Source: an uncultured Acidobacteriota bacterium
GTDB taxonomy: Bacteria > Acidobacteriota > Vicinamibacteria > Vicinamibacterales > SCN-69-37
Assembly: GCA_963816795.1 (NCBI GenBank)
Contig: CAWFLT010000001.1
Coordinates: 375,259 to 439,258 of the forward strand
Direction of reading: 5' to 3'
DNA: 64,000 nucleotides
Below are positions 6,223 to 54,664 of this stretch, piece by piece. The notes below the pieces were generated by a model. The model worked only from the letters and a program-made list of their open reading frames with translations. It was not told the origin of the DNA and searched no databases. How positions within the stretch are numbered: the first letter of the stretch is position 1; every line of letters begins with the position of its first letter. The position numbers were made by a program, and so were the translations under genes.

Positions 6223-7499
6223 TTAACGGCGTGGGGCCCCACCCCCACGCCTCGGGCCCGCGCCGGTAGAGCGGCGCGGGGTGTCTGCGTCGCTGACTGC
6301 GACACCGCGAAGCGCGGGAGCGCTGAGCGCCCGAGCCGCGGGGGTGGGGCCCCGCGGCCAAAAGCGGTACGCGACAGCAACACGCCCAGGGTGATGGCGT
6401 TGATCAGCGGCACCTGGATCCACCACGGCAGCGCCGCGTGCACCCACCAGACCTGCAGGGCCACGACCACCGGCAGGTGCACGATATAGACGAAGTACGA
6501 CGCATCGGCGACGTAGCGGCTGCGGCGTGACGGCCGATCGAAGCGCGCGACGAACAGCCCCGTCCACCCCGCCACTGACAGCGTCATCGTCAGGCTCGTG
6601 GCGAAGGATGCCGCCCAGCGCAGCACGTCGGCGTGTGCCGTCGCCCACGGCCCAGCCGTCACTCGCACGGCGGCCAGGCCCGCACCGACGAGACTCGCGA
6701 GTAATCCGAGCACAAGCAGCGACCGCCAGCGCTTCGCAGCGATCTGCAGCCAGGACGGGTGCCGAAACAGCCACCAGCCGAACGTGAACCAGAGACCGTA
6801 CACCGCCATCACGGGCCAGTTCGGGGCGAAGCTGCTGTCGGGTGTGTCGACGTCCAGGCCCTGCATCGTGGCGAGGATCGGCGTGAGCAGAATCGCGATG
6901 ACCACCGGAGCCGAGGCGACCGGTCATCGCCGATTCAAACAGCTGATCGACGCGTGCCAGTGCCGCACGGGCCGGTGCAGAGCGCGCGACGCGCGAGCCA
7001 TCCGACAGCCGAGCGCGAGCAGCGTGATCCAGAAGAGGTAATAGAGGAACCAGAGATGCGTCAGCCTCGTCTCGAGCACCGCCGATCCCAGCGCCAACGT
7101 GTACCACGGGAGCGAGTCGATGAGCGGCGGCAGTTCGAGCCAGCCGGTGGTGCGCCCCCCGGCGATCCAGAGCGCGCCCAGGACGAACTTCATCGGATAC
7201 AGCACGACGAAGAACACCAGCAGAATGCGGCGGAGGCGATCCCACACATAGGCGCGCGTGCCGCGGCGATCGACGACGAGCGCGCCGAAAAACCCCGCCA
7301 TCAGAAAGAAGATCTCGAGGCGGAAGCTGTGGAGGTAGTAGATGAGCCAGCCCAGCGTCGGCGACGGCTCGTCGGTCCCGACCGCCCAGGCACCGCCGGG
7401 CATCACGTAGGTCAGCGTGGAGTGCAGGAGGACGCCGAGCAGCAACGCCCACGCGCGCAGGGCGTCGAGGCCGTGCCACCGTTCGGACGCTGAGGTCAC
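6177..7499 (-). pseudogene. Acyltransferase-3 family membrane protein, interrupted, with its 3' end running through a repeat
   Basis: The N part (track 6924..7550) has WHGLDALRAWALLLGVLLH and HLWFLYYL; the C part (6177..6905) has hydrophobic helices. The two are in the same frame, separated by TGA at 6921-6923 (or by a compensating frameshift pair between ~7005 and ~6920). The likely start GTG 7499 overlaps the upstream TGA (GTGA). The last ~60 codons are encoded by Family A element 6228-6359 and overlap the M20 3' end. Confidence 0.65.
6228..6359. repeat. Family A element (complete hairpin form): two inverted GGGGCCCCACCCCC cores flanking a GGTGTC..GACACC centre
   Basis: Cores at 6233-6246 (+) and 6340-6353 (reverse complement). 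The arms pair over ~30 bp. The right half 6293-6355 is nearly identical to 10522-10584. It lies between convergent M20 and acyltransferase genes. Confidence 0.85.
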
Positions 7500-8248: not shown

Positions 8249-8935
8249 TGCTGAGCTTCACCCCCTTCATTCGCTTCATGTCTACCGATCAACAGCCGGT
8301 TTTTGGCAGTGATCTCTTCCGGGATCTTCATCGTCCAGATCTGATACCCCTGCGCCTTGAGCCGGATTGCGCGCGTCATGTCGATCGCCAGCGCGCCGTC
8401 TGCCCACCCGGAGAGATCGCCGGTGTCACAGGACGAGAGATCGTGACAGCACGGCAACACAGCAAGACTCGCGCGCGCCGCCGCCGCGCGTTCGATCACG
8501 CGATCGGTCAGCGCACCACAGGCGTGGCACGACACCACGAGATCGCCGGCGCCGAGTGGCGACGTCGTCGAGATCCATCGATTCGAAACGAACACGGCCG
8601 GCCAGACGAGGCCATGCGGCAATGAGCGCGTCGTGCAGCGTCGCCGCCGATGGCGGAATCACGCGGTCAACGACGACGGCGGTTGGCGAGGTGTCATCGA
8701 GGAGCAGCAGCGCGTGCGCCAACAGCCCGTGGCCGCCGGCGATATCGACAACCCGGCCGCCACGCACATGACGTCTGACCCGCTTGGCCATCTCCCAGGC
8801 TTCGTACAGTTCCTTGCGCGGCAGGCAGCCAACCTCGCAGATCGCACGCGCCAGACGGTCAAACAGCGTCGAGTTCGGGAAGCGGCCAAGATCGTGCCGC
8901 GTCAGGCGCGCACGGGATGACAGTGAGAAGGCCAA
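8245..8935 (-). pseudogene. Methyltransferase (Methyltransf_32-like, HACG/PCCH motifs) with one frameshift near 8565
   Basis: Track ORFs 8426..8935 (VVDIAGGHGLLAHALLL ... RVRFESMDLDDV) and 8245..8622 (SPLGAGDLVVSCHACGALTD ... LPCCHDL) join if one base is skipped at about 8565. The last codons run into a Family B array (8255-8290). Confidence 0.6.
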
Positions 8936-9165
8936 TTACCGATTACCCATTCCCCATCGCCATCCCATGCCGCCATTCCCCATCGCCATTCCCCATTTCC
9001 CATCGCCATTTCCCATTGCCCATTCCCATCGCCATTTCCCATTTCCCATCCGCACTTCCCATTGCCCATTTCACATTGCCATTGCCATTGCCAAATTGCC
9101 CATCAGGATTGCCGATTGCCGATGTGTTTGCCATTGCAGATTGCCGATTTCCCGATTGTCGATTA
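8936..9165. repeat. Family C half-element: ~230 bp of CCATTSC/CCCATYS short units ending in the conserved Family C terminus
   Basis: Tandem 6-7-nt units (cattcccc, catcgc, catttccc, cattgcc ...) in one orientation only. 9107-9165 matches 3996-4053 at roughly 55 of 60 positions. The terminal GATTA contains the DinB stop codon. Confidence 0.8.
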
Positions 9166-31579: not shown

Positions 31580-31684
31580 CGCGACATTCTACGGCACGCT
31601 GGATCACAACGTGTTTCCACCGACGATTAAGGGATTCATCACGCAACAGTGACCAAGAGCGTTCGAGGGTTCGACCGACGGAGA

Positions 31685-31775
31685 ACGCGGAGAAACGGGG
31701 CTCACGGAGATTGACCGGAAGGGTTGAACGACCTTTCTTGCTCCGTGGCTCCGTACGTCTCCGTGCTCCCCGTGT
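31685..31775. repeat. CTCCGTG-only inverted array (Family A-lite hairpin)
   Basis: ACGCGGAGAA and CTCACGGAGA on the left. CTCCGTG, GCTCCGT, TCTCCGTG and CTCCCCGTG on the right. Confidence 0.7.
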
Positions 31776-31818
31776 GAGATGTCTGTGCGTCGTGTGATTC
31801 GCGGAAGGGCCAGGTGAC

Positions 31819-40220: not shown

Positions 40221-40907
40221 TCACGCGCGCCGCTTCTTGGTCAGATCACGCAGCGCGTCGTTGCCGATCCATCGCGCCGCCGGATCGGCCATCGCGCTCA
40301 ACCGCTTCGCGGTCGCCGTGGCCGCCGCGTGGAGCTTGGCGTTGCGCGTGCCGATGCGGCGCAGCGCCCAGCTGATGCCCTTCTTCACCAGGTGGCGATC
40401 GTCGGCCGCTTCCTGCTCGACGAGCCGCAGGCCCTTCACGAACTGCTCGTCACGCGCTGTCTTGTCGTGCCCGGCAAGACTGGCCAGCAGGGCGAAGCCG
40501 GCCCGCTTGACGAACTCGTCGCGCTGCACGCTCCACTTGGCGACTTTCGCCCAGGCGTGAGGCGTCTGATCGAACAGCTTGAAGCACAGCGTGTCGCAGA
40601 CGCCCCAGTTGTCGAACGCGCGGCACCATTGATCCATCTGTGCGGACGTCACTCGATCCGGCTCATCGACGAAGGCGGCCAACAGGCGCGCTTCGTACCA
40701 GCCGGTCTTCCACAACGCCGCGGCCAGCGCATGGCTGCGTCCGGTCCGTTTCGCGATGGCCTGGATGTTGGCGAGCGAGACGCCAATCGCTTTCGGCGCG
40801 GTGATGCCGAACCGGGTGAGGTTGTCGAGATCGCGCGTCGTGCGCTTCGCACGAAGCCAATCGAGTACGGTGTCGACCTCTGGCGGAGAGACGCGCTTCG
40901 CGGGCAT
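40221..40907 (-). CDS. DNA alkylation repair protein (AlkD/AlkC-like HEAT-repeat, PF08713-type)
   Basis: ATG 40907 (or 40934) inside track ORF 40221..41075. Motifs WKTGWYEARLLAAFV, FDNWGVCD, EFVKRAGFALLA, VKKGISWALR. Confidence 0.75.
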   Translation of the reverse strand: MPAKRVSPPEVDTVLDWLRAKRTTRDLDNLTRFGITAPKAIGVSLANIQAIAKRTGRSHALAAALWKTGWYEARLLAAFVDEPDRVTSAQMDQWCRAFDNWGVCDTLCFKLFDQTPHAWAKVAKWSVQRDEFVKRAGFALLASLAGHDKTARDEQFVKGLRLVEQEAADDRHLVKKGISWALRRIGTRNAKLHAAATATAKRLSAMADPAARWIGNDALRDLTKKRRA

Positions 40908-40941
40908 GCGTCTCAGTGTATGCCGGAGTAGCATCACGGAG

Positions 40942-41706
40942 ATGGGTGTCGTCCTGACGCCGATTGTCGAGCCGCAAACGATCGCGTTGAGCACGTTGCG
41001 CGATCGGACGCTGGCCGTGGACGGCAACGGTGAGCTGTACCAGTTCCTGGCGTTGATCAGGCTGCGCGACGGCACACCGCTGCAGGACGCGAACGGCCGG
41101 GTGACGTCTCACTTGTCGGGTCTGTTCTTCCGCACGACGCGGTTGATCGCGGAACACGGTCTCAAGCTCGCCTTCGTGTTCGACGGCGCTCCGCCTGCGC
41201 TCAAGGCCGCTGAGCTGGCACGACGCCGCGCGGTGAAGGCCACGTTCGAGCACGCGAGAGCGGAAGCGATCGCACGTGGCGATCTCGACCAGGCGTATGC
41301 CAAAGCCACGATGACCTCGCGGCTCACGCGCGAAATGGTCCAGGAGGCGCGCGAACTGCTCCGCCTCCTCGGCGTGCCGACACTTCAGGCGCCGTCAGAA
41401 GGCGAAGCGCAGGCCGCCCACATGGCGCGGACCGGTCGCGTCTGGGGATCGGCCAGCAAGGACTACGACACGCTGCTGTTCGGCGCCCCGAAACTGCTGC
41501 GGTTCCTGACGATTTCCGGGAAGGAGTTTCTGCCGAGCGTCGGAAAGTTTCGTCCGCTCGTTATGAAGGAAATGAAGGGATTGAAGTTCATGAAGAATTG
41601 GTTTTCGAAAGCCAAACCCTTCATGTGCTTCATCTCCTTCATTCCCTTCATGTCAAGGTTTTGGACACGCGTCAGAAGCGGAAACCGAAGCCAAACCTGG
41701 AGCTGA
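40942..41706 (+). pseudogene. Archaeal/eukaryotic-type flap endonuclease FEN-1 (XPG N+I domains), truncated after about 205 aa
   Basis: ATG 40942. Motifs MGVVLTPIV, LAVDGNGELYQFL, GRVTSHLSGLFFRT, FVFDGAPPALK, LQAPSEGEAQAAHMA, SKDYDTLLFGAPKLLRFLTISGK. These are near-colinear with Pyrococcus-type FEN-1 as I recall it. Homology stops at ...GKFRPL (~41556), the H3TH region (GTDYN) is absent, and the last ~45 codons are Family B repeat. Confidence 0.75.
41563..41652. repeat. Family B element: 90-bp imperfect hairpin of ATGAAGG-type units centred on TTCGAA
   Basis: The left arm 41563-41606 pairs with the right arm 41607-41652 at about 36 of 44 positions. Lies between convergent FEN-1 and OMP genes. 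Confidence 0.8.
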
Positions 41707-42304
41707 AGTTGTTGCTCGTGCACGACTCGCCCCAGCACGGCGGCGCGGAGCTCCGATGCCAGACCATCGTGTCGCCGATATCGAAGCGCAGGATCGTTCG
41801 CGGCGACGGATAGAACTCCAGGACGCCGCCGAGATCCAGCGCGAACTCCGTCCGGTACTCGGGCACCACCAGGAGCCGCGTCGAGATCAGCGCACAGACG
41901 TCACCGGCGCAGTCGACGCCCTGGTCCGAGAGCGACGTGAACCCGGGCCGGACCTTGCCGAACAGGCCAATCCGCTGGTTTCTGACCCCCATCTTCGGGC
42001 CAAAGAACGCCTCGGCCCGGCGGCGCCGATAGATCGTGCCCAATTCCGGCACGGAACTCATCACGGTGACGTCGTCGTTCGGAAACAGCGTGAACTCACT
42101 CTCGAGCGTCATCCAACGCAATGGATCGTAGGAGAACCGGCCGCCCAGCCCGGCGTTGGTGGCGGCGAAGTCGCTGAGGTGGATTGCCGAGAACTGGCCG
42201 CCGACTTCGAACTTGGGAGCGGAGGATTGCGCGAGCGCGGAACCCGCCGATCCAAGACTAATCAGGGCGGTGGCGAAGAACAGTGAACGGAATCGAACGG
42301 GCAT
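41672..42304 (-). CDS. Outer-membrane beta-barrel protein (OmpA-like/OmpW-like small barrel)
   Basis: Signal MPVRFRSLFFATALISLGSAGSALA, alternating beta-strand pattern, C-terminal ...RFGFGFRF. Confidence 0.7.
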   Translation of the reverse strand: MPVRFRSLFFATALISLGSAGSALAQSSAPKFEVGGQFSAIHLSDFAATNAGLGGRFSYDPLRWMTLESEFTLFPNDDVTVMSSVPELGTIYRRRRAEAFFGPKMGVRNQRIGLFGKVRPGFTSLSDQGVDCAGDVCALISTRLLVVPEYRTEFALDLGGVLEFYPSPRTILRFDIGDTMVWHRSSAPPCWGESCTSNNFSSRFGFGFRF

Positions 42305-42382
42305 TGAGCGAGCTCCTTACAGACTGGCGACGCGTGCGATCTGGCAATCGTACCGCGTTCAGTACTGCAAGCGTCATGCCTG

Positions 42383-43276
42383 TCAGGTTTTGGCTAGCCT
42401 CCGAAATATCCCCGCCGCGCGTGAGACCACGTAGCGGTCGGCATCCGGCGCCGTCACGCGGACGTCGACGTCGTGCCATCCATTGGCATCAACGCCGGAG
42501 ACGGTGTATCGCAGCACGTAGCTCTGCCGGAAGTCATTGAGGACGCGGCGGAGGGCGCTGACGGCGTCGTGAAACTGGCCCGGCGCGTGGACGGTGCCGC
42601 CGGTGGCTTCAGCCGCGTCCCGGAGCGATCGGATGGTCGGCGGGAAACTGTCGGGGCTGCCAGAAAGCACGAGATGCAGCGCGCAATCGGATCGGCGGGC
42701 GATGTCGGCGAGCGTCGAGGCGGTGACGACGCTCGAGGTGTCGACACCGTCGGAGAACGCGACGACAAGCTGGCGCCGGCCGGGCTCGGGACGGCGGACG
42801 AGCGCCAGGAGCAGCGCGTCGTGCAGCGCGGTGGTGCCGCTCGAGAGAAGACGGTTCATCGGCAGACGTTCACCGGCGGGCGTCAGCGGGAACACCTCGA
42901 CCACCTCGGTCGAGAAGGCGATCAGGCGCACTCGATCCCGGTCGCGCAGCATCTGCGCGACCGTTTCGGCGCTCGACTTGAAGCGCGCAATGGCTTCGGC
43001 CGTGCTCGAGCTCGCGTCAAGAACGAGCGTCAGGTCCACGGGCACCGATTCGAGCGACAGCGCCTCGATCTTCTGCGTGACGCCGTTGTCCGTGAGCGCG
43101 AAGTCCGACGTGCCGAGCGACGTGATCGGCGTGTTGCCGCGCCGGACCGCGACGGTGATCGAGACGGCGTCAGTCGACGCGCGGAACACCTGCTGAGCGG
43201 CCGGCCGATCGCCCGCCACGAGAACGACGAGCGCGATGGCCGCGCAGGAAACGAGCGCAGTGGAAACGCGAGTCAT
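42383..43276 (-). CDS. VWA-domain protein (VWFA-related acidobacterial domain type)
   Basis: ATG 43276 forms an ATGA overlap with the upstream gene. Signal, then DLTLVLDASSS (MIDAS-like). The canonical ending ...ARRGYFGG* is in the +1 frame from about 42424 (stop 42396..42394), suggesting one more single-base insertion. Confidence 0.75.
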   Translation of the reverse strand: MTRVSTALVSCAAIALVVLVAGDRPAAQQVFRASTDAVSITVAVRRGNTPITSLGTSDFALTDNGVTQKIEALSLESVPVDLTLVLDASSSTAEAIARFKSSAETVAQMLRDRDRVRLIAFSTEVVEVFPLTPAGERLPMNRLLSSGTTALHDALLLALVRRPEPGRRQLVVAFSDGVDTSSVVTASTLADIARRSDCALHLVLSGSPDSFPPTIRSLRDAAEATGGTVHAPGQFHDAVSALRRVLNDFRQSYVLRYTVSGVDANGWHDVDVRVTAPDADRYVVSRAAGIFRRLAKT

Positions 43277-44538
43277 CGCAGTGCCGCCCTCATCTGGTTG
43301 AAGTACTCCGGAAGCAGACGCTGATCGCCCAGGCGGTAGGCCCGCCACGGATCGGGAGCCGGCCCGCCCTCGAGGAAGAGATCCTCGGCGAGCGCGGCCG
43401 CTTCGGCGCGGGCGCCGGTCTGGAACAGCCGCGCGATGAGCAGTGACGTTGCCGAGTGCGCCCGGGGATACAGATTCAGCGCGGCACGATACGCGTCGAT
43501 CGCCTGTGCGGGCTCGGCCTGGCGTTCCTGGATCGTGCCGGTCACGAGATGCGCCAGATAGGTGACGTGCGGATCGCGGCTCAGGGTGACGGCGAGGGCG
43601 AGATGCTCGAGCGCCTGCTCGCGCTCCGCAAAGCGAAACTCGATGAGCGCGAGCCGGACGAGCGCCTCGGCAGCCACCGTTGGGTAGCCGACCAGCGCGC
43701 GGTATTGCTCCTTCAGGCGTTGGAGATCCGCGATCTGCGCCAGCGCACGGGCGGCCACTGGTTTCGCGCTTGGCAGCCGCCGTCCCGATCCGTCGGACGC
43801 CAGGACCTGGCCCGCGCGCAGGCTCTGGAGATAGGCCGGATCGATCTCGCCCGCCATCATCGCGAAGCGGTGATTCAGATCCCGTCCGGGCCCGCCGGCT
43901 TCCCAGGTGAGGGTTTCGGCCGCGATGGCTTCCGCCAGCATCAACCGTGGCTCGTCGGGAAATCGCGCCCGTGCGTGACGCAGATGCCCCTGTCGCCGTT
44001 CGTTCTCAGTCGGGTTGCGCGTGACCGGCATCGGCTTGCCCGAGGGCAGGTGCTGCCCGATGACGAGCGCCCAGTCTTCGGCCGTCTGCGCCACCGCCAC
44101 CGCCGCGAGATGCCAGATCCGCTCGCCCGACCACGCGCTCGACCCGGCACCGACGTGCCCACAGCCCCACGCGAGCAGCGCCGGGGCGTAGGCCCAATCG
44201 GGCGTGCCGGCCCACTGACGCACGACGTCCAGGGCGAACGTCGCCGCCAAGGCACTGCGATTCGTCTGGGCGCCGCCCTCGGCGATCCAGTCCCGGACGT
44301 CGTCTCGAAACGCGCGGACAGCGGCGGCCTTGTTGGGCTGAAACGCAAACGTGCGGGCGCTTCGATCGTCGCCGTCCGCATACCGGGTGAGCATCTGCGC
44401 CGCCGGCGATGACCGCAGGCGGGCGGGCGCGTCTGGAAGCGTCTGCACGGCGACCGCGCCGCGGCCGCACACCAGCATCACCAGGCTGCTCGTAGCGACC
44501 CATCGGATTGCCGTGCTCGCACCCGCTCGGTGACTCAT
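43273..44538 (-). CDS. Secreted hypothetical protein with a C-terminal TPR-like helical region
   Basis: Intact 421-aa ORF, translationally coupled to the VWA gene. The helical-repeat-like C-terminus (AIDAYRAALNLYPRAHSA) is only weakly diagnostic. Confidence 0.5.
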   Translation of the reverse strand: MSHRAGASTAIRWVATSSLVMLVCGRGAVAVQTLPDAPARLRSSPAAQMLTRYADGDDRSARTFAFQPNKAAAVRAFRDDVRDWIAEGGAQTNRSALAATFALDVVRQWAGTPDWAYAPALLAWGCGHVGAGSSAWSGERIWHLAAVAVAQTAEDWALVIGQHLPSGKPMPVTRNPTENERRQGHLRHARARFPDEPRLMLAEAIAAETLTWEAGGPGRDLNHRFAMMAGEIDPAYLQSLRAGQVLASDGSGRRLPSAKPVAARALAQIADLQRLKEQYRALVGYPTVAAEALVRLALIEFRFAEREQALEHLALAVTLSRDPHVTYLAHLVTGTIQERQAEPAQAIDAYRAALNLYPRAHSATSLLIARLFQTGARAEAAALAEDLFLEGGPAPDPWRAYRLGDQRLLPEYFNQMRAALR

Positions 44539-44637
44539 CCTGTGCCTCTTGGTGCATGAGACGGCAAATCGTCCGATCTGACCGATGAGGTTTCGATGGG
44601 GTTTTGATGGGGCGGACGGCCCTCTTTACAATGAATC

Positions 44638-45102
44638 GTGCCCGCTCGAGAGTGTTACCACTGCAAGCAGCTGATCGCCGAAGGCGAGCCGCACGACTGC
44701 TGGACGACGACGGAAGCCGCGCTGACGCGAGATCTCTCGGAGGACCTGCGGGAGGCCTGGGAGCGGCTGCGCGCAACGGCCGAGAAGTTTGGCGAGCAGC
44801 GCATCTACGCGTCGCACCACTCGATCATGTTCTCGCGGGCGTCTTGCTACTTTTTCGTGCGGCCGAAGCGGAAGTTTCTCGAGGTCTGTGTCTTCCTCGG
44901 GCGCCCCGTGAAATCGGCGCTGGTCCATCGCGTCGATCCGGCGTCGAAATCGAAGATCGTGCACACGTTCCGAATCACGCATCGCGACCAGGTGGAGCCG
45001 CCGTTCACTGAGTGGCTGCGGGAGGCGTACGATTTACCGGCAAAACTGGCGACCGGTCAGGCGAGAAAGCGCCAGCTCGGCGTCGGAAAACATCCACCAT
45101 GA
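44638..45102 (+). CDS. DUF5655-like protein
   Basis: Intact 154-aa ORF (GTG start). IYASHHSIMFSRASCYFFVRPKRKFLEVCVFLGR resembles DUF5655. Its stop codon lies in the first unit of a Family B array. Confidence 0.5.
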   Translation: MPARECYHCKQLIAEGEPHDCWTTTEAALTRDLSEDLREAWERLRATAEKFGEQRIYASHHSIMFSRASCYFFVRPKRKFLEVCVFLGRPVKSALVHRVDPASKSKIVHTFRITHRDQVEPPFTEWLREAYDLPAKLATGQARKRQLGVGKHPP

Positions 45103-45818
45103 AGACGTGAAGGCCTGAAGAACAACTAGGGAAACCCTTGCGATCACACGCGCGAGCGCGCGTCAGGGGGGATAAAGCGTTTCAAGGGATCGTGCTGCAT
45201 TTCCAGCCAGGAACGCCCTTCATTCACGACTCGGTCGCTGTCGCCTGGACGACAGCACAATGCTCGTGACGCCCTGCACCAGACGCTGGACGTTGAAGTT
45301 GATGATCAGCGCCTGCGGGACGTCCAGTAACTTGAGGTACGTCAGTGCCTGGGCGCGGTGTATGGGCAGGACCTTCGCAATCGCCTTCAGCTCGACGAGC
45401 AACTCGCCTTCGATCAGGTAGTCAACGCGGTACCCCCAATCGAGCTTGATCCCCTTGTACCGCAATGGCAGCGAGGCTTCGCGAACGAAGCTGAACTCAG
45501 ACACGCTCAACTCATGGGCGAAGCACTGATCGTACGTCGACTCCAACAAGCCCGGGCCAAGTTGGCGATGGACCTCAATCGCACACCCAATCACCTTCCG
45601 AGCCAGGGGCGTCTCGTAGTACGACATGCAGCCGTCCGTGCAAGCAGCCTGCCAGCGTGGTCGCGCCAGAATTTCAAGAGTTCCTGATGGGAGTTGCAGT
45701 TTCTGCAATGCCCGGCGATCTTCTTGACGTGCTTGACCTCCGGACGCGCCGTTGCCCGTGTGATCTTTGAGGGTTTCGCCAACCCTTCTTCACGGTCTTC
45801 ACGTCTTCATGGTGAAGG
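45099..45818. mobile_element. Candidate MITE-like cassette: GxxExxY gene bounded by ~25-nt imperfect terminal inverted repeats of Family B units
   Basis: Left is ATGAAGACGTGAAGGCCTGAAGAAC (45099-45123). The reverse complement of 45786-45810 is ATGAAGACGTGAAGACCGTGAAGAA, with the first 14 nt identical. Lower-GC interior. Inserted between convergent genes. Confidence 0.35.
45220..45627 (-). CDS. GxxExxY protein (PDDEXK_3 nuclease-fold family)
   Basis: ATG 45627 inside track ORF 45220..45708. Motifs GPGLLESTY (GxxExxY), DYLIEGELLVELKA, LIINFNV. Confidence 0.8.
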   Translation of the reverse strand: MSYYETPLARKVIGCAIEVHRQLGPGLLESTYDQCFAHELSVSEFSFVREASLPLRYKGIKLDWGYRVDYLIEGELLVELKAIAKVLPIHRAQALTYLKLLDVPQALIINFNVQRLVQGVTSIVLSSRRQRPSRE

Positions 45819-45826
45819 TTTTTCGA

Positions 45827-46945
45827 CTACCGCTTGAACGTGATCTTCTGTACTCGCCAGTTGGTCATCTCGCCGACGAGCAACTCGGAGTCGTTGCGGC
45901 AGTCGATGGAATTGGCGAGCCCGAACTGCTTGGGCAGTTTGCCGGCCGCGCCGAACCGGCCGACCACTTTCCCGTCGAGCTGCACTTTGTAGATCTCCGC
46001 GTCCTCCATCCCGTCGTCATCGCCGGCGTGCGAGATGTAGAGGTACTGCGTCGTGCCGCGGGTCAGGCACATCGTGAGGGGCGTGCCGACGCCGCCGAAC
46101 TCGGATTTGAACGTGCCGGACAGATCGAAGACCTGGATGCGCTTGTTGCCGCGGTCCGCGACGTAGAGATTGTCTCGCGCGTCGATCGCCAGGGCCTTGA
46201 CGCCGTTGAACTGGCCGGGGCCGGAGCCGGTCGAGCCCCAGTGCGCGATGAAGCGCCCGTCCTTGTCGAACTTCGCGACTCGATTGTTGTTGCCGATGCC
46301 GTCGGCGACGTAGATGTTGCCGGCGCGATCCCAGGCGACGTCGGCCGGTCGATTGAAGCTCGAGCCCGGTGTTCCAGACCCGGCGCCTGGTGCCGGAGCC
46401 GCTGGCGGGGGCGGTGGCGGCGGCTGAGCCGCGCCCGCTGCTGGAGGAGCGCCGGCCGCGCCGCCGCGCGCCCCGGGCGGCTGCGCCGGCCGGACGCCGA
46501 TCGCTTCCGGTTTGCGGCCGAGCACGAGGGCGATGCGTCCGTCGGGATCGAACTTGACCACTTGATTCGCCGCGGCGTCGATCGTCCACACGTTGTCCTG
46601 CGGATCGATACGCAGTCCGATCGCGGCGTTGAACCCGTAGACGTCCTGGCCGAGCTCGCGGACGAACTTGCCGGACGGATCGAACTGGAAGAGTCGCGAT
46701 CCGCCGCGGGCGAACGTGCGGTTGTCGCCGACGGTCGCGTACGGGTGGCCGGTTCGCGTGTAGACGAAAATCTGACCCTTCGAATTCGCCCCGACGCCGG
46801 CAACTTCGCCGACGTAGATGTCGTTGGGCGTTTTCAGCACATCGACGTCGGTGTCAAACGGCAGGACGGGCGGCGCCGTTTGTGCGGCGAGGCTGCCGAC
46901 GATCGCCATCGCAAGAACCGGAAGCGCGCGGACAAGTCGTGACAT
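45827..46945 (-). CDS. NHL-repeat beta-propeller protein (secreted)
   Basis: Intact. Signal; repeated NRPADVAWDRAGNIYVADGIGNNRV / FNGVKALAIDARDNLYVADRGNKRIQVF units. Carries a 45-aa P/A/G-rich insert. Confidence 0.8.
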   Translation of the reverse strand: MSRLVRALPVLAMAIVGSLAAQTAPPVLPFDTDVDVLKTPNDIYVGEVAGVGANSKGQIFVYTRTGHPYATVGDNRTFARGGSRLFQFDPSGKFVRELGQDVYGFNAAIGLRIDPQDNVWTIDAAANQVVKFDPDGRIALVLGRKPEAIGVRPAQPPGARGGAAGAPPAAGAAQPPPPPPPAAPAPGAGSGTPGSSFNRPADVAWDRAGNIYVADGIGNNNRVAKFDKDGRFIAHWGSTGSGPGQFNGVKALAIDARDNLYVADRGNKRIQVFDLSGTFKSEFGGVGTPLTMCLTRGTTQYLYISHAGDDDGMEDAEIYKVQLDGKVVGRFGAAGKLPKQFGLANSIDCRNDSELLVGEMTNWRVQKITFKR

Positions 46946-46957
46946 GGTGCGCTCCCC

Positions 46958-48040
46958 TCAGCGGGCGGCCGGCGCAAGCGACGCGCCGGGCTTCAGCAGA
47001 ATCTTCTGCGACCGCCAGTTGTTGATCTCGGCGGTGTAGATCACATTCGGGTCGCGGCAATCCATTTGATGGGTGGTGGCGAACTCCCCCACCGCCTTGC
47101 CGCCGCGACCGAACTTCCCGAGGATCGTGCCGTCCAGCTCCATCTTGTACACCTCCCCGGTGAACTCGGCCGACGCGGCCGGTGCGCTATCCGGCCACGA
47201 GTTGGACACGAAGAGGTACTGCTTGCCGGGATTCTTCGGCCCGGGGCCGCCCGACACACAGACGCCCCATGGATTGCCGACGTTGGAGTAGTTGGCCTTC
47301 CAGTTCAGGTCGTTGTCGAGCACCTGCACGCGAGCGTTGCCGCGATCGCCGACGTAGACGTTGCCCTGAAAGTCGGTCGCGATCGAGTGCGGCGTGTTGA
47401 ACTGGAGCTGGCCGTTGCCGCGCGTCCCGACCGCCTTGACGAAGCGGCCGTCACGGTCGTACTTCACGACGCGGGCATCGAAGTAGCCGTCGGACACGAA
47501 GATATTGCCCTGCTGATCGAATGCGACGTCGGTCTGCCGGCCGAAGCGATACTTCGCGTTGCGTCCATGAAAGGCGCCGGCCCCCGGCATGTTCGACAGC
47601 ATCGCGACGGGATCCTCCCGGCGGCCGATGGTCATCAACACCTTGCCCGCCGGGCTGAACTTGATCAGCATGTCGGTGCCCTCGTCCACCGCCCAGACGT
47701 TGTCTTGCGCGTCGACGCGCACCGAGTGCGCGAAGGCGAAACCGTAATTGTTGCGGCCGATCTCGCGGACGAACATCCCTTGCGGCGAGTACTCGAACAG
47801 TCGCGTCTCGTTCGCGCGGTGGTAGATGTAAATCGCGCCCTTCGAGCTGGTCGCGATCCCCATGTTCTCGCCGGTGTAGATGCCTGGCGGATTCTTGAAG
47901 AAATTGGGGACGGCTTCGTGCGGAATCACTGGTACGTTGGTCGCGGTCGCACGCGTCTGGGCGGCGATGCCTTCAGGCGGACGCAGAACCACCGCCGCGA
48001 TCGCGATCGCGGCGAGCGAAGTCAAGACGCGTCGGTTCAT
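46958..48040 (-). CDS. NHL-repeat beta-propeller protein (paralog)
   Basis: ATG 48040 inside track ORF 46958..48142. Signal MNRRVLTSLAAIAIAAVVL. FNTPHSIATDFQGNVYVGDRGNARVQVL units. No low-complexity insert. Confidence 0.8.
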   Translation of the reverse strand: MNRRVLTSLAAIAIAAVVLRPPEGIAAQTRATATNVPVIPHEAVPNFFKNPPGIYTGENMGIATSSKGAIYIYHRANETRLFEYSPQGMFVREIGRNNYGFAFAHSVRVDAQDNVWAVDEGTDMLIKFSPAGKVLMTIGRREDPVAMLSNMPGAGAFHGRNAKYRFGRQTDVAFDQQGNIFVSDGYFDARVVKYDRDGRFVKAVGTRGNGQLQFNTPHSIATDFQGNVYVGDRGNARVQVLDNDLNWKANYSNVGNPWGVCVSGGPGPKNPGKQYLFVSNSWPDSAPAASAEFTGEVYKMELDGTILGKFGRGGKAVGEFATTHQMDCRDPNVIYTAEINNWRSQKILLKPGASLAPAAR

Positions 48041-48168
48041 GGAGGGGCTCCGCGGGCAATCTAGCACGAAGGGCATGACGCCTGGCTGGGAAGATCGGCG
48101 CAACGGGCGCCAAACCGTGGCATCATGCGCGCACCGTCCCATTGACGGTCTGACCTCTGGAGCAGGAC

Positions 48169-49441
48169 ATGAGCAAACGACACTCGTCGATGTTCTCCGT
48201 CACGGCGTTCGCACTGGTTTCGGTCCTCGTCGCGTCGGCGCAGCAGCAGCCGCCACCGCCGGCGCCACCAGCCCAGGCCGCACCGGCACCAGGGGGACGC
48301 GGCGGGCCCCAGACGCCGCCGGTCGTGTCGCCGGAGGTCCTCGCCGATCGCCGGATCACGTTCCGTCTCTCGGCGCCGCAGGCGCAGAACGTGCGCCTGA
48401 GCGGCGGCGACATTCCGGGCCTCGGTCAGAACAACGTGCTGACCAAAGGCGAGAACGGCGTGTGGGAGCTCACCGTCGGCCCGGTGGTCCCCGGGCGCGT
48501 ATCGGTACACGTTCAATGTGGATGGCGTCACCGTGCTCAATCCGCGGAGCCCGATCACGAGCGAGTCCAACACCAACGTGTGGAGCATGGTCTACGTGCC
48601 GGGCTCGGACACGATGGACACGCGTGATGTGCCGCACGGCGCAGTCGCGATGATCCCGTATTACTCGACGGCACTGAAGCGCGACCGGCGCATGCACGTC
48701 TACACGCCCCCGGGCTACCAGGCCGGGCGCGATCGCTATCCGGTCTTCTACCTGCTGCACGGCGCGAGCGATTCCGACGCCGCCTGGTCCACCGTCGGGC
48801 GCGCCGGATTCATCCTCGACAACCTCATCGCCACGAAGAAAGTGAAGCCGATGATCGTCGTCATGCCGGCGGGCCACACCAATCCGCCCGCGGCCGGACG
48901 AGGCGCCGCTGCAGGAGGCACGCCGGTGCCGAATGCGACCGAAGAGTTCGTCTCGGATTTCCTGACTGACGTCCTGCCCTACATCGAGAAGAACTATCGC
49001 GTGATCGCCGAACGGAACAGCCGCGCGATCGCCGGTCTGTCGATGGGCGGCAATCAGACGCTGCAGATCGCCGTGCCGCAGCTCGACAAGTTCGCGTACG
49101 TCGGCGTCTTCAGCTCAGGTCTGCTCGGTGGTGGTGGCGGACGCGGCGCGGCGCCAGCAGCGGCCGCCGGCGCGGCCCCCGCGGCGCCACCGCCACCGTT
49201 TGGCGCGGCGTTCGAAGAGCGCTACGGCACCATGCTCGGCAACGCGGCGTTGCGCAAGGGCCTCAAGGTCTTCTGGTTCGCGACCGGCAAGGACGACGGC
49301 TTGATCACGACGACGCGATCGACGGTCGAGCTGTTCAAGAAGCACGGCTTCTCGCCGGTGTTCAAGGAAACGGCCGGCGGCCACACGTGGCTCAACTGGC
49401 GCGACTACCTGATCGAGTTCGCGCCGATGCTGTTCCAGTAG
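48169..49441 (+). CDS. Secreted esterase (putative esterase/CE1-like alpha/beta hydrolase with N-terminal Ig-like/CBM48-like domain), one frameshift near 48492
   Basis: Track ORFs 48169..48627 and 48518..49441 join at ...ELTVGPVVPG|(A)YRYTFNVDGV. YPVFYLLHGASDSD, and GLSMGG as the nucleophile elbow. Confidence 0.75.
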
Positions 49442-49473
49442 GTGTCTGAAAGAGCTTCAACCACAAGACCTCA

Positions 49474-49735
49474 ACGTGAAGGTCGTGAAGAAGGGCAAAC
49501 TTTGGGTTTGCTGGCCGCGTCAACCGACGCATTCAGACTTCTGGCCGCGTCCCAGAGCGGTCTCGAGCGACCGAAGCACGTGAAGCTCTCCCGCTGAATA
49601 GCTCACGCGCGGCTGTGGGGTTGCCTGTACAAGTCCTTCATCCCCGAATCAGCGCCAGTAGCTGACGGAGGGTTGCGCCTCTTGCCGAACCGTCTTCAGT
49701 CCTTCACGACTTCACGGTAAATGTTTTTCACGGGT
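49474..49735. repeat. Family B inverted arrays flanking a ~190-bp ORF-less interior (empty-cassette-like)
   Basis: Left is CGTGAAGGTCGTGAAGAAGG (49474-49498). The reverse complement of the right array (49692-49735) is CGTGAAGTCGTGAAGGACTGAAGACGG. Confidence 0.6.
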
Positions 49736-49812
49736 GTCGAGAATCGCGACTCGGCTCCGACCTGCTTGTGAAAACACGGGAGAACGACTTCTCCCCAAAT
49801 CAGGAGCCGTCC

Positions 49813-50271
49813 ATGCCGACCATCACGCCGTTTCTCTGGTTCGACACCCAGGCCGAAGAGGCCATGACCTTCTACGCCTCGGTGTTCAAGCACGCCGAGG
49901 TCATCACCGTCAACCGCGCGCAGGGCCGCGTCATTTCCGTCGACTTCGAGCTCGAGGGCCAGCGGTTCATGGCCCTCAACGCCGGCCCCGACTTCAAGTT
50001 CAACGAGGCGGTGTCGTTCTTCGTCAGTTGTGAGACGCAGCCGGAGATCGACAACTACTGGGACAAGCTCACCGCCGATGGCGGCGCGCCCGGCCGGTGC
50101 GGCTGGCTCAAGGACAAGTTCGGCCTCTCGTGGCAGATCGTGCCCAGGAAAATGGGGCAGCTACTCGGCGGCGGCGGAGATCCGGAGCGCGCCGGCCGCG
50201 TGGTGCAGGCGATGCTGCAGATGAACAAGCTCGACCTGCACCGGCTGCAGCAGGCCTACGACGGCGAGTGA
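49813..50271 (+). CDS. VOC/PhnB-like protein (3-demethylubiquinone-9 3-methyltransferase-domain family)
   Basis: CAGGAG then ATG 49813. MPTITPFLWFDTQAEEAMTFYASVF ... KDKFGLSWQIVP. Confidence 0.8.
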   Translation: MPTITPFLWFDTQAEEAMTFYASVFKHAEVITVNRAQGRVISVDFELEGQRFMALNAGPDFKFNEAVSFFVSCETQPEIDNYWDKLTADGGAPGRCGWLKDKFGLSWQIVPRKMGQLLGGGGDPERAGRVVQAMLQMNKLDLHRLQQAYDGE

Positions 50272-54578: not shown

Positions 54579-54606
54579 CAATCTTACGGTCGCTAAGAGT
54601 CACTAG

Positions 54607-54633
54607 CCTCCGTGCGGCTCCGTGTGCCCCGTG
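54607..54633. repeat. CYCCGTG tandem array (3 units)
   Basis: CCTCCGTG CGGCTCCGTG TGCCCCGTG between convergent genes. Confidence 0.65.
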
Positions 54634-54664
54634 TTCTGTCGCGAAGCTCTTGATCGTGACTCCC

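Follow-up and report, generated by a model that had tools for sequence, protein, structure and literature searches.

Among the systems described so far, the closest to the locus analysed here is the partnership between repetitive extragenic palindromic (REP) sequences, with their inverted doublets (REPINs), and the REP-associated tyrosine transposases (RAYTs), in which short palindromes are dispersed over the intergenic DNA, inverted doublets form hairpins, and inverted copies of the dispersed repeat stand on either side of the associated gene (Bertels & Rainey 2011, PMC3116915; PMC3337134; PMC5581495). Further points of comparison are the miniature inverted-repeat transposable elements (MITEs) and insertion sequences, free-standing homing endonuclease genes, integron cassettes and those 23S rRNA intervening sequences that contain an open reading frame (ORF), which are regarded as selfish elements (PMC4990558). 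The present work deals with a GxxExxY (PDDEXK_3) gene bounded by inverted arrays of short repeats in a stretch of 64,000 nucleotides, referred to below as the window, from a contig of an uncultured Acidobacteriota bacterium. For its Pfam family, PF13366, the function is listed as unknown and multiple transfers between divisions have been reported (PMC3424549).

A first, sequence-only reading of the window had proposed that this gene and its flanking repeats are a possible single-gene mobile cassette. The proposal is supported by the comparisons given below, and neither of the two ways in which it might have failed, that is, other GxxExxY copies without such flanks or the same arrays at this junction without the gene, was encountered. 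In fact, gene and arms are shown to be one unit of insertion, inheritance and horizontal transfer. We consider it probable, with room for doubt, that the whole is a single-gene cassette with cognate repeats, in a partnership resembling that of REP sequences and RAYTs; our confidence in the catalytic step of such a partnership is lower.

Insertion of the cassette in the window lineage

The relative L212, a metagenomic contig reached through a DUF5655 homologue with 94% identity, is collinear with window positions 40945-49970 at 93-98% nucleotide identity (blastn). The alignment is interrupted at exactly three places, every one of them a site of the RTGAAG repeats (the "Family B" units of the sequence-only reading): the cassette itself (site G), a gene-less hairpin (H) and a longer gene-less element (E), as listed in Table 1. 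At the cassette the alignment stops at window position 45074 and restarts at 45825, and the junction between the DUF5655 and NHL genes in L212 consists of ordinary sequence, with no GxxExxY gene and no arrays, so that gene and arms arrived together. The empty junction that the sequence-only reading had thought worth looking for in relatives is therefore present in L212, and it is free of arrays. Moreover, the other DUF5655 homologues, like that of L212, have a longer basic C-terminal tail, whereas the window protein ends early in residues encoded by the arm; since the homologues keep the tail that the window copy has lost, the filled state is the derived one. The unit was thus inserted in the window lineage after its split from a relative that is ~96% identical.

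The same reading had pointed to target-site duplications as a possible trace of the insertion. When the filled and empty sites were compared, none was found at the window junctions, and adjacent host DNA had been lost instead (169 nt at the cassette insertion). At both junctions of H, and on the left side of G, the ancestral host sequence resembles the outer motif of the element, a resemblance that could reflect either a target preference or microhomology joining.

Table 1. Features of the cassette and of the related array sites, in window coordinates
Feature	Position	Strand	Basis, or counterpart in L212
Whole inserted unit: left arm, GxxExxY gene, promoter-like region, right arm	45075..45827	-	blastn break against L212; inverted repeat 45082-45827
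Left arm: outer motif GTCGGAAAACATCCACC, then CATGAAG, CGTGAAG, CCTGAAG (period 8, 8)	45082..45123	+	
Inner continuation of left arm, imperfect; 3' untranslated side of gene	45124..45214	+	inverted-repeat pairs 74-79% complementary; RNA fold
GxxExxY / PDDEXK_3 gene, 135 aa from ATG (MSYYE...)	45220..45627	-	
Sigma-54-like promoter motif TGGCAGGCTGCTTGCA	45639..45654	-	pattern match and clade conservation
Palindrome TTGCAGAAACTGCAA, upstream of promoter-like motif	45694..45708	-	kept in clade relatives
Inner continuation of right arm, imperfect	45737..45785	+	inverted-repeat pairs
Right arm: reverse complement GTCGAAAAACCTTCACC, then CATGAAG, CGTGAAG, CGTGAAG (period 8, 9)	45786..45827	+	
Site G (cassette), interruption of alignment	45075-45824 (750 nt)		169 nt: normal DUF5655 tail and GC-rich intergenic stretch
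Site H, interruption of alignment	41563-41668 (106 nt)		376 nt: 3' end of XPG/FEN-like gene
Site E, interruption of alignment	49442-49681 (240 nt)		5 nt; right arm common to both
Solo hairpin H: four ATGAAG units, 23-nt loop, four CTTCAT units; no gene	41563..41668		
Element E (~300 nt): left arm, ~190 nt interior without ORF, right arm	49442..49745		
Single arm, window heptamer variant: CTTCAC, CTTCAT, CTTCAT	8256..8280		

Structure of the cassette

Each arm of the window cassette is laid out, from the outside inward, as GTCGRAAAAC, a TTCACC-like hexamer (ATCCACC in the left arm, CTTCACC in the right one) and three heptamers, CATGAAG / CGTGAAG / C(C/G)TGAAG, at a spacing of 8-9 nt. The inverted repeats that had been read at 45099-45123 and 45786-45810, identical over their first 14 nt, were found exactly as quoted. 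In a search of the window, the 14-mer ATGAAGACGTGAAG has exact matches only at 45099-45112 (+) and 45797-45810 (-), and with at most two mismatches it has three matches, against 0.26 expected from shuffles. The length of ~25 nt first given to the repeats has to be corrected, as the arms (45082-45115 / 45794-45827) are 34 nt long and 88% complementary, with weaker complementarity further in (45116-45138/45770-45792, 74%; 45142-45170/45737-45765, 79%), the imperfect repeat extending over ~90 nt per side. The best inverted-repeat score between the two 350-nt flanks of the gene was 35.5, while 850 random controls of the same geometry gave a 99th percentile of 13.8 and a maximum of 21.

The unit lies between two converging host genes, DUF5655 (44638-45102, +) and an NHL-repeat gene (45827-46945, -). 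Its left arm supplies the last codons and the stop codon (45100-45102) of DUF5655, its right arm adjoins the NHL stop codon, and its GC content of ~0.58-0.60 compares with 0.64-0.70 over most of the surrounding window. The lower GC, the convergent neighbours and the stop codon in the left repeat agree with the sequence-only reading.

The gene, whose most plausible start is the ATG at 45627, is the single GxxExxY copy of the window. Its product matches PF13366 (PDDEXK_3; E 1.4e-34, 119.4 bits, cut-off 22) and TIGR04256 (GxxExxY; E 9.5e-37, 125.9 bits, cut-off 35). PDDEXK_3 is its sole Pfam match, and the protein does not qualify as an HUH tyrosine transposase; inspection of the ORFs and Pfam matches of the unit gave no transposase encoded inside it. 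Exact look-ups of the window GxxExxY protein, of P0001 and P0002 and of the NHL protein returned no entry on record, and a scan with the window protein alone gave no relative in representative genomes and one distant locus in metagenomes. No rRNA or other Rfam family reached its curated threshold in the window, and relaxed Rfam searches gave generic hairpin (microRNA precursor) noise only.

Distribution among phyla

All four of the closer relatives whose DNA could be retrieved (61-80% protein identity, different neighbours) have RTGAAG or ATGGAG arrays on both sides of the gene, and GAC-AAAA-type outer motifs likewise flank them on both sides. The neighbours are an ABC transporter and a response regulator in L124, a TonB-dependent receptor and a tetratricopeptide repeat (TPR) protein in L125, and a metallophosphatase and cytochrome c maturation genes in L128. 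A further contig, L002:1-1210 (Joint Genome Institute, JGI), is near-identical to the window from GPGLLES through the left arm into DUF5655; upstream of GPGLLES it has a different GxxExxY N-terminus, right after an ORF resembling by eye the 3' end of arginyl-tRNA synthetase. The contig is a hybrid whose two parts meet at the conserved GPGLLES motif, the product either of chimeric assembly or of recombination between paralogues, and was set aside as a second cassette context.

A wider survey was based on the best 80 of more than 589 matches from an alignment-based scan of species-representative genomes (45-59% identity, mostly metagenome-assembled genomes, MAGs). These loci come from Planctomycetota, Verrucomicrobiota, Acidobacteriota, Chloroflexota, several proteobacterial classes, Bacteroidota, Cyanobacteria, Omnitrophota, Nitrospinota, Gemmatimonadota and other groups, including one Methanothrix MAG (an archaeon). 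In viral contigs there were two GxxExxY loci only, with arrays at both, a number too small to serve as an independent test. The cassette family is thus very widespread, extending over many bacterial phyla, one archaeon and two viral contigs, and in the survey library the protein family amounts to 16,430 clusters at 50% identity. The DNA pattern RTGAAGNNNRTGAAGNNNRTGAAG matched at least 120 viral contigs, presumably for the most part through unrelated 9-nt tandem repeats, and was for this reason not taken on to the genome collection.

The consensus arm of the surveyed loci consists of TTCACC followed by three C-R-Y-R-R-A-G heptamers at 8-9 nt spacing, facing inward, and the left arm of the window cassette fits it. 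A degenerate detector found at least one array within 250 nt of the gene in 63 of 89 GxxExxY genes, so that, as in the four close relatives, flanks of this kind are not peculiar to the window copy; for 30 genes, a single purine-rich array precedes the gene and a single pyrimidine-rich one follows it. Near the gene there were 2.33 arrays per kb, compared with 0.095 over the rest of the same loci (a 24-fold difference) and 0.015 in shuffled sequence. Furthermore, a flank inverted-repeat score of at least 16 was reached by 37 of 80 GxxExxY genes and by 5 of 407 other ORFs of the same loci (Mann-Whitney p 4e-16). The most frequent heptamer variants were CACAGAG (22 genes), CACGAAG (11), CACGGAG (9), CGCAGAG (6) and CATGAAG (5), the remaining ones being fewer, and the RTGAAG units of the window are a local variant of the same C-R-Y-R-R-A-G heptamer. 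A typical cassette measures 420-480 bp, with a median gap of 16 nt from array to start codon and of 11 nt from stop codon to array; the window cassette is an expanded form of this compact design. The gene shares the orientation of its upstream neighbour in 69% of cases, which was judged to be near ordinary operon expectation.

The protein and its heptamer variant

In the window protein, the family motif is GLLESTY, residues 26-32 (G26-L-L-E29-S-T-Y32). E29, D69, E79 and K81 are invariant among 38 homologues of the family alignment and are taken as the putative catalytic residues. The AlphaFold model (predicted local distance difference test, pLDDT, 89.7) has an alpha-beta-beta-beta-alpha-beta core, and the fold search gave weak matches, all of them to PD-(D/E)XK-type nucleases (Bax1, Cas4, lambda exonuclease, tRNA-splicing endonuclease and I-Bth0305I). 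A search of the PDB by sequence gave no solved structure or relative of the GxxExxY protein, and literature searches found no experimental paper on GxxExxY nuclease activity.

The protein clusters track the heptamer variant and not the taxonomy of the host. The cluster that goes with CACGAAG, for instance, brings together proteins from Planctomycetota, Desulfobacterales, Chromatiales, Hydrogenedentota and Sumerlaeota. Pairs of proteins with the same variant are 57.5% identical, compared with 54.2% for pairs with different variants, a difference reached in none of 2000 permutations. The link can be followed to single residues: residue 122 is Ser in 9 of 9 proteins whose heptamer has T at position 3 (the window clade together with copies from Methylococcaceae, Caldilineaceae, Planctomycetota and Verrucomicrobiales) and Arg in 55 of the 56 whose arrays were scored and have C at that position, while residue 105 is Gln or His in the T-at-position-3 group and hydrophobic in the C group. 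With columns 105 and 122 removed, the two groups with T at position 3 formed one clade in 0 of 100 neighbour-joining bootstrap trees, which suggests that the change happened twice. By the general rules of protein-DNA recognition, the loss of Arg together with a G:C to A:T change, accompanied by the gain of Gln, would fit a direct readout of the base.

Nature of the arms

Between the two arms of one cassette, the heptamer cores are 95.6% identical and the spacer length is mirrored in 71 of 71 comparisons; the spacer bases are 50% identical, compared with 37% between unrelated cassettes. Unit mismatch by array position amounts to 6.7%, against 9.6% across positions, so that register matching is weak, and transition mismatches between the arms have no G-U bias on the sense strand (46 vs 42). 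Since cores and spacing are kept, spacers are not, and the G-U bias is missing, the arms look like protein-binding arrays of fixed spacing and not like a stem kept by covariation.

This bears on the explanation that the arms act mainly as RNA, the stem of a read-through transcript enclosing the ORF and RNase III processing or a hidden start codon making the insertion harmless, as in 23S rRNA intervening sequences, with mobility coming from elsewhere. In favour of it, the RNA fold of the whole unit has the arms paired over ~90 nt (z -8.4); the compact cassettes of other phyla leave no room for a promoter, the median distance from 5' array to start codon being 16 nt and an overlap of the array with the ORF start being frequent; and the 23S_rRNA_IVP gene of L161, described further below, has an analogous flanking design. 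Nevertheless, pairing alone would need neither a heptamer motif common to distant phyla nor solo hairpins without cargo, and 17 of 89 genes diverge from their upstream neighbour, where read-through transcription cannot reach them. With spacer complementarity not kept and register matching weak as well, we regard a mainly RNA-based role as quite unlikely, and an RNA stem under selection was rejected on the negative G-U test. A T-run precedes the hairpins in most phyla and an A-run follows them, which is the reverse of a terminator, and for this reason a terminator was dropped as a general explanation.

Gene-less elements and modes of movement

Apart from the cassette, the window contains three other RTGAAG sites, that is, the hairpin H, the element E and a single arm, all built from the same units as the arms of the cassette and bringing the number of such sites in the 64 kb to four. 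Hairpin H, located between convergent genes (DNA fold -24.8 kcal/mol, z -5.5), is absent from L212 and takes the place of the 3' end of an XPG/FEN-like gene. Since L212 has normal 3' coding sequence there, the gene appears to have been truncated and re-tailed by H, with ~125 codons lost in the window. The XPG/FEN-like ORF (window 40756-41706) now runs through H and overlaps the end of the convergent gene. Regarding E, the sequence-only reading had noticed an inverted pair at 49474-49735 and thought of an empty or decayed version of the cassette. The pair exists, and in L212 everything but the right arm of E is missing; the idea of a decayed gene copy was rejected, as the interior has no similarity to the GxxExxY protein. 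A second variant, CRCGGAG, forms a hairpin at 31670-31790 (CGACGGAG, CGCGGAG, CACGGAG ... four CTCCGTG units) and a single arm at 54600-54640, suggesting a second, matching GxxExxY type elsewhere in the genome. Two periodic arrays were also seen at 9006-9164.

Gene-less hairpins, composed of an array, an interior of 6-190 nt and an inverted array, are common in the surveyed loci too, and arrays lying more than 400 nt from the gene carry the unit of the local cassette in 28 of 56 cases, against 8.7 expected. The abundance of solo hairpins and single arms far from GxxExxY genes, some of them flanking ordinary genes, could also mean that hairpin arrays are independent intergenic palindromes, maintained by the host for transcript ends or for structure, and that the gene is a passenger using them as hot spots or as a preferred target, its protein not acting on the arrays. 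The position of H between convergent genes agrees with this, as does L125, where a complete 250-nt hairpin element occurs in two direct copies, one on each side of the gene, instead of enclosing it. On the other hand, the empty junction of L212 has no array waiting for a gene, arms and gene having come together; the heptamer variant follows the clade of the protein across phyla, and not the host; residues 122 and 105 covary with the unit; and the arrays are 24 times denser beside the gene. Repeats independent of the gene are, for these reasons, unlikely in our judgement, and arms that belong to the cassette remain the preferred reading.

The deltaproteobacterial MAG CAVTRY01 provides a different mode of movement. 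It has four copies of a ~570-bp GxxExxY unit, 98.6-99.7% identical and at different sites (L157:4870-5450, L192 and two in L178). In three of the four, which are complete, terminal repeats of 25 nt (GGGTGCCTCCCTGAAA...; GGGTGCCTCCCTGAAACGGGGGC) are bordered by target duplications of 9 bp (GGATCCGAG, GCCGGCTAC, CTAGCCCCA). The degenerate heptamer arrays lie further inward and bear no relation to these terminal repeats, and the unit looks like a cassette carried as cargo on a conventional non-autonomous, MITE-like transposon; the different outer repeats and the 9-bp duplications point to an unrelated transposase acting in trans. Such a case raises the question of whether the cassette in general is a MITE-like non-autonomous element, its terminal repeats recognised by a conventional transposase in trans and the GxxExxY gene being mere cargo. 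The near-identical copies of CAVTRY01 would be what is expected from it. Yet their terminal repeats are not the heptamer arrays, no target duplication was found at 35 canonical cassettes or at that of the window, and one host transposase would not explain a heptamer design shared by distant phyla, which leaves this explanation very improbable. The lack of duplications at canonical cassettes further implies that the window unit was not placed by standard staggered-cut transposition.

Proposed mechanism and significance

For a cassette with its own cognate repeats, the following steps can be proposed. The ~125-aa PD-(D/E)XK protein would bind the heptamers, three sites per arm, as the covariation suggests; a nuclease activity at the hairpin or duplex arms might, more speculatively, start breaks or recombination; and host repair might then convert these breaks into further copies, with no duplication and in some cases at the cost of neighbouring DNA, a step equally speculative. 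Solo hairpins would be non-autonomous partners, moved or maintained in trans by the protein of the cassette.

Several points weigh against this proposal. That the protein binds or cuts the arrays is something we infer from covariation by computation, and the covariation itself involves two protein groups on a 115-column phylogeny of weak resolution. About 29% of the genes are array-free by a strict detector; many of those so scored have two-unit or variant arrays by eye. The paralogues in one genome are divergent from one another, and the context of shikimate kinase, metallophosphatase, GxxExxY and cytochrome c maturation genes (the L128 type) is common to proteins 71% and 66% identical to the query, which together indicate that the cassette moves rarely and that one cassette can stay at a single site for long. 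The only clear recent multiplication, that of CAVTRY01, went through different outer terminal repeats. The two replacement-type junctions of the window could have arisen by general illegitimate recombination at unstable palindromes and not by a reaction encoded by the element. Finally, we know of no precedent for a stand-alone PD-(D/E)XK protein moving DNA.

A broader proposal, which we put forward tentatively and hold to be possible but doubtful, is that prokaryotes harbour a class of mobile or selfish DNA not recognised before, with GxxExxY proteins as its enzymes. In it, a minimal nuclease would recognise both inverted arms, by three heptamers in each, and would drive the spread and upkeep of a ~450-bp cassette, and of hundreds of gene-less hairpins per genome, in many phyla and without target duplication; the 23S_rRNA_IVP cassettes would be a sister system. 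Literature searches, among them searches with the literal array sequences, found no description of these ends in a searchable literature that is itself incomplete.

The conserved end architecture provides a testable hypothesis for the GxxExxY / PDDEXK_3 family, namely that of a repeat-binding nuclease of a selfish element. If true, it would account for short periodic repeats that litter intergenic DNA and gene ends in many phyla, and it would represent a second, independent arrangement of the REP/RAYT kind, built on a different fold, with a bearing on the evolution of long-lived intragenomic replicators. Such repeats probably give rise to spurious ORFs and N-terminal extensions in annotation. 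Moreover, a ~125-aa protein whose specificity apparently switches with two residues could interest those who engineer DNA recognition. The elements have also altered host genes in the window, where DUF5655 has lost its tail and the XPG/FEN-like gene has been shortened.

Putative expression signals

Sigma-54 promoters are characterised by a -24/-12 consensus. It is resembled by the sequence TGG-N9-TTGCA, which every one of the five window-clade cassettes carries 11-14 nt upstream of the start codon, with TGG...TTGCA invariant; this sequence is therefore designated here as a putative sigma-54 promoter. The window copy ends 11 nt before the start codon, and the pattern TGGY-N7-TTGCA has this single match in the window (0.42 expected). 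From the spacing of 11-14 nt, a nearly leaderless mRNA is suggested. The palindrome TTGCAGAAACTGCAA is present in four of the five clade cassettes (window, L123, L124 and L128) and may be an activator or operator site. Neither a sigma-70 promoter nor an intrinsic terminator was found by consensus in 44900-46000. The long inner repeats, the sigma-54-like promoter and the palindrome, all probably gained in the window clade, suggest a tightly controlled expression.

Further observations in the surveyed loci

In L154:170-1740, on a contig assigned to a Propionicimonas MAG, long tandem hairpins of the CACAGAG type (~122-nt period) stand on both sides of the GxxExxY gene. L137 and L175 have two cassettes side by side, differing in heptamer variant or in sequence. 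Among the proteins P0243-P0251 there are several of ~275 aa with two GxxExxY stretches, as could result from a true fusion or from the reading of tandem cassettes as a single ORF. In the CACAGAG subfamily (L155, L156, L179, L182 and L205), the 5' array follows an ATG in frame (ATGAACCACAGAGG...), ~30 nt before the gene start or overlapping it, and N-termini such as MNHRGTETQRD are predicted from it; this array may be translated or may be the source of wrong start-codon calls.

Other inverted pairs of short-unit arrays (6-9 nt period) were seen in intergenic DNA, with units such as GGGAACG/CGTTCCC, GCTATCG/CGATAGC and GATAAC/GTTATC (L179:3156-3270 and 6305-6411; L184:2844-3057; L169:4762-4835; L193:801-868; L196:2430-2639). 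Such pairs may belong to additional families of this general type. In L161:1021-1490, a 23S_rRNA_IVP (four-helix-bundle) gene (PF05635, E 5e-34) lies between fliE-like and fliF-like flagellar genes and has inverted arrays on its two sides. Their period is also 7 nt but their unit is another one, CTAGGGG/CTAGAGG in the upstream array and CTAGCCT in the downstream one, so that the layout of a small gene between inverted arrays recurs here with other cargo. A second 23S_rRNA_IVP gene ends at L161:~187 and is followed by GACCCCC-type repeats.

Comparison with known systems

Integron cassettes share with the present unit a single, usually promoterless ORF joined to an imperfect palindrome able to fold (attC). 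Here, in contrast, the gene has an arm on either side in place of one attC, the units occur as scattered single copies and not in arrays beside an integrase, and the arms end in TTCACC / GGTGAA, with no attC-type ends seen by eye, no attC model or integrase search having been made. Like MITEs and insertion sequences, the cassette is small, has terminal inverted repeats (34 nt, 88%) and gene-less derivatives, and is present or absent according to the strain; unlike them, it encodes no DDE or other known transposase, left no target duplication in the window and was accompanied by the loss of adjacent DNA. Free-standing homing endonuclease genes resemble it in having a small nuclease as sole cargo, a duplication-free insertion that replaces local sequence, and a wide horizontal spread, and differ from it in that the unit described here has no conserved host-gene target, intron or intein, has repeated end motifs of its own, and leaves gene-less copies of its ends scattered through the genome.

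With the short tandemly repeated repetitive (STRR) sequences, the arrays have in common tandem units of ~7 nt in intergenic DNA and a function that is unknown. To our knowledge, STRR sequences have been described as longer tandem runs, and not as paired inverted triple arrays around a GxxExxY gene. They are heptanucleotide tandem repeats of cyanobacteria, reportedly described by Mazel et al. in 1990. Mention of them is also made in PMC2670836.

The 23S rRNA intervening sequences (S23p / 23S_rRNA_IVP; Coxiella, PMC4990558) are similar in that an ORF of ~120-130 aa lies inside complementary arms with a long stem possible, and the L161 gene of that family itself stands between inverted arrays of short units, a layout generally like the present one. 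The differences lie in the location, since the window unit stands between the DUF5655 and NHL genes and not in 23S helix 25 or 45, in the protein family, and in arms that carry a conserved periodic motif.

With REP/REPIN-RAYT systems, finally, the locus shares the dispersed intergenic short palindromes, the inverted doublets that form hairpins and the gene flanked by inverted copies of the dispersed repeat. In both, moreover, a mostly stable gene is accompanied by variable and apparently numerous repeats, and several repeat/gene families per genome are possible. The enzyme, however, is of the PD-(D/E)XK type here, whereas RAYTs are HUH tyrosine transposases of the IS200/IS605 type; the arm is a triple 7-nt array, whereas REP is a single palindrome of 20-40 nt with a GTAG or CGTC tag; and the gene family of the cassette, unlike theirs, extends over many phyla, often with several paralogues per genome.

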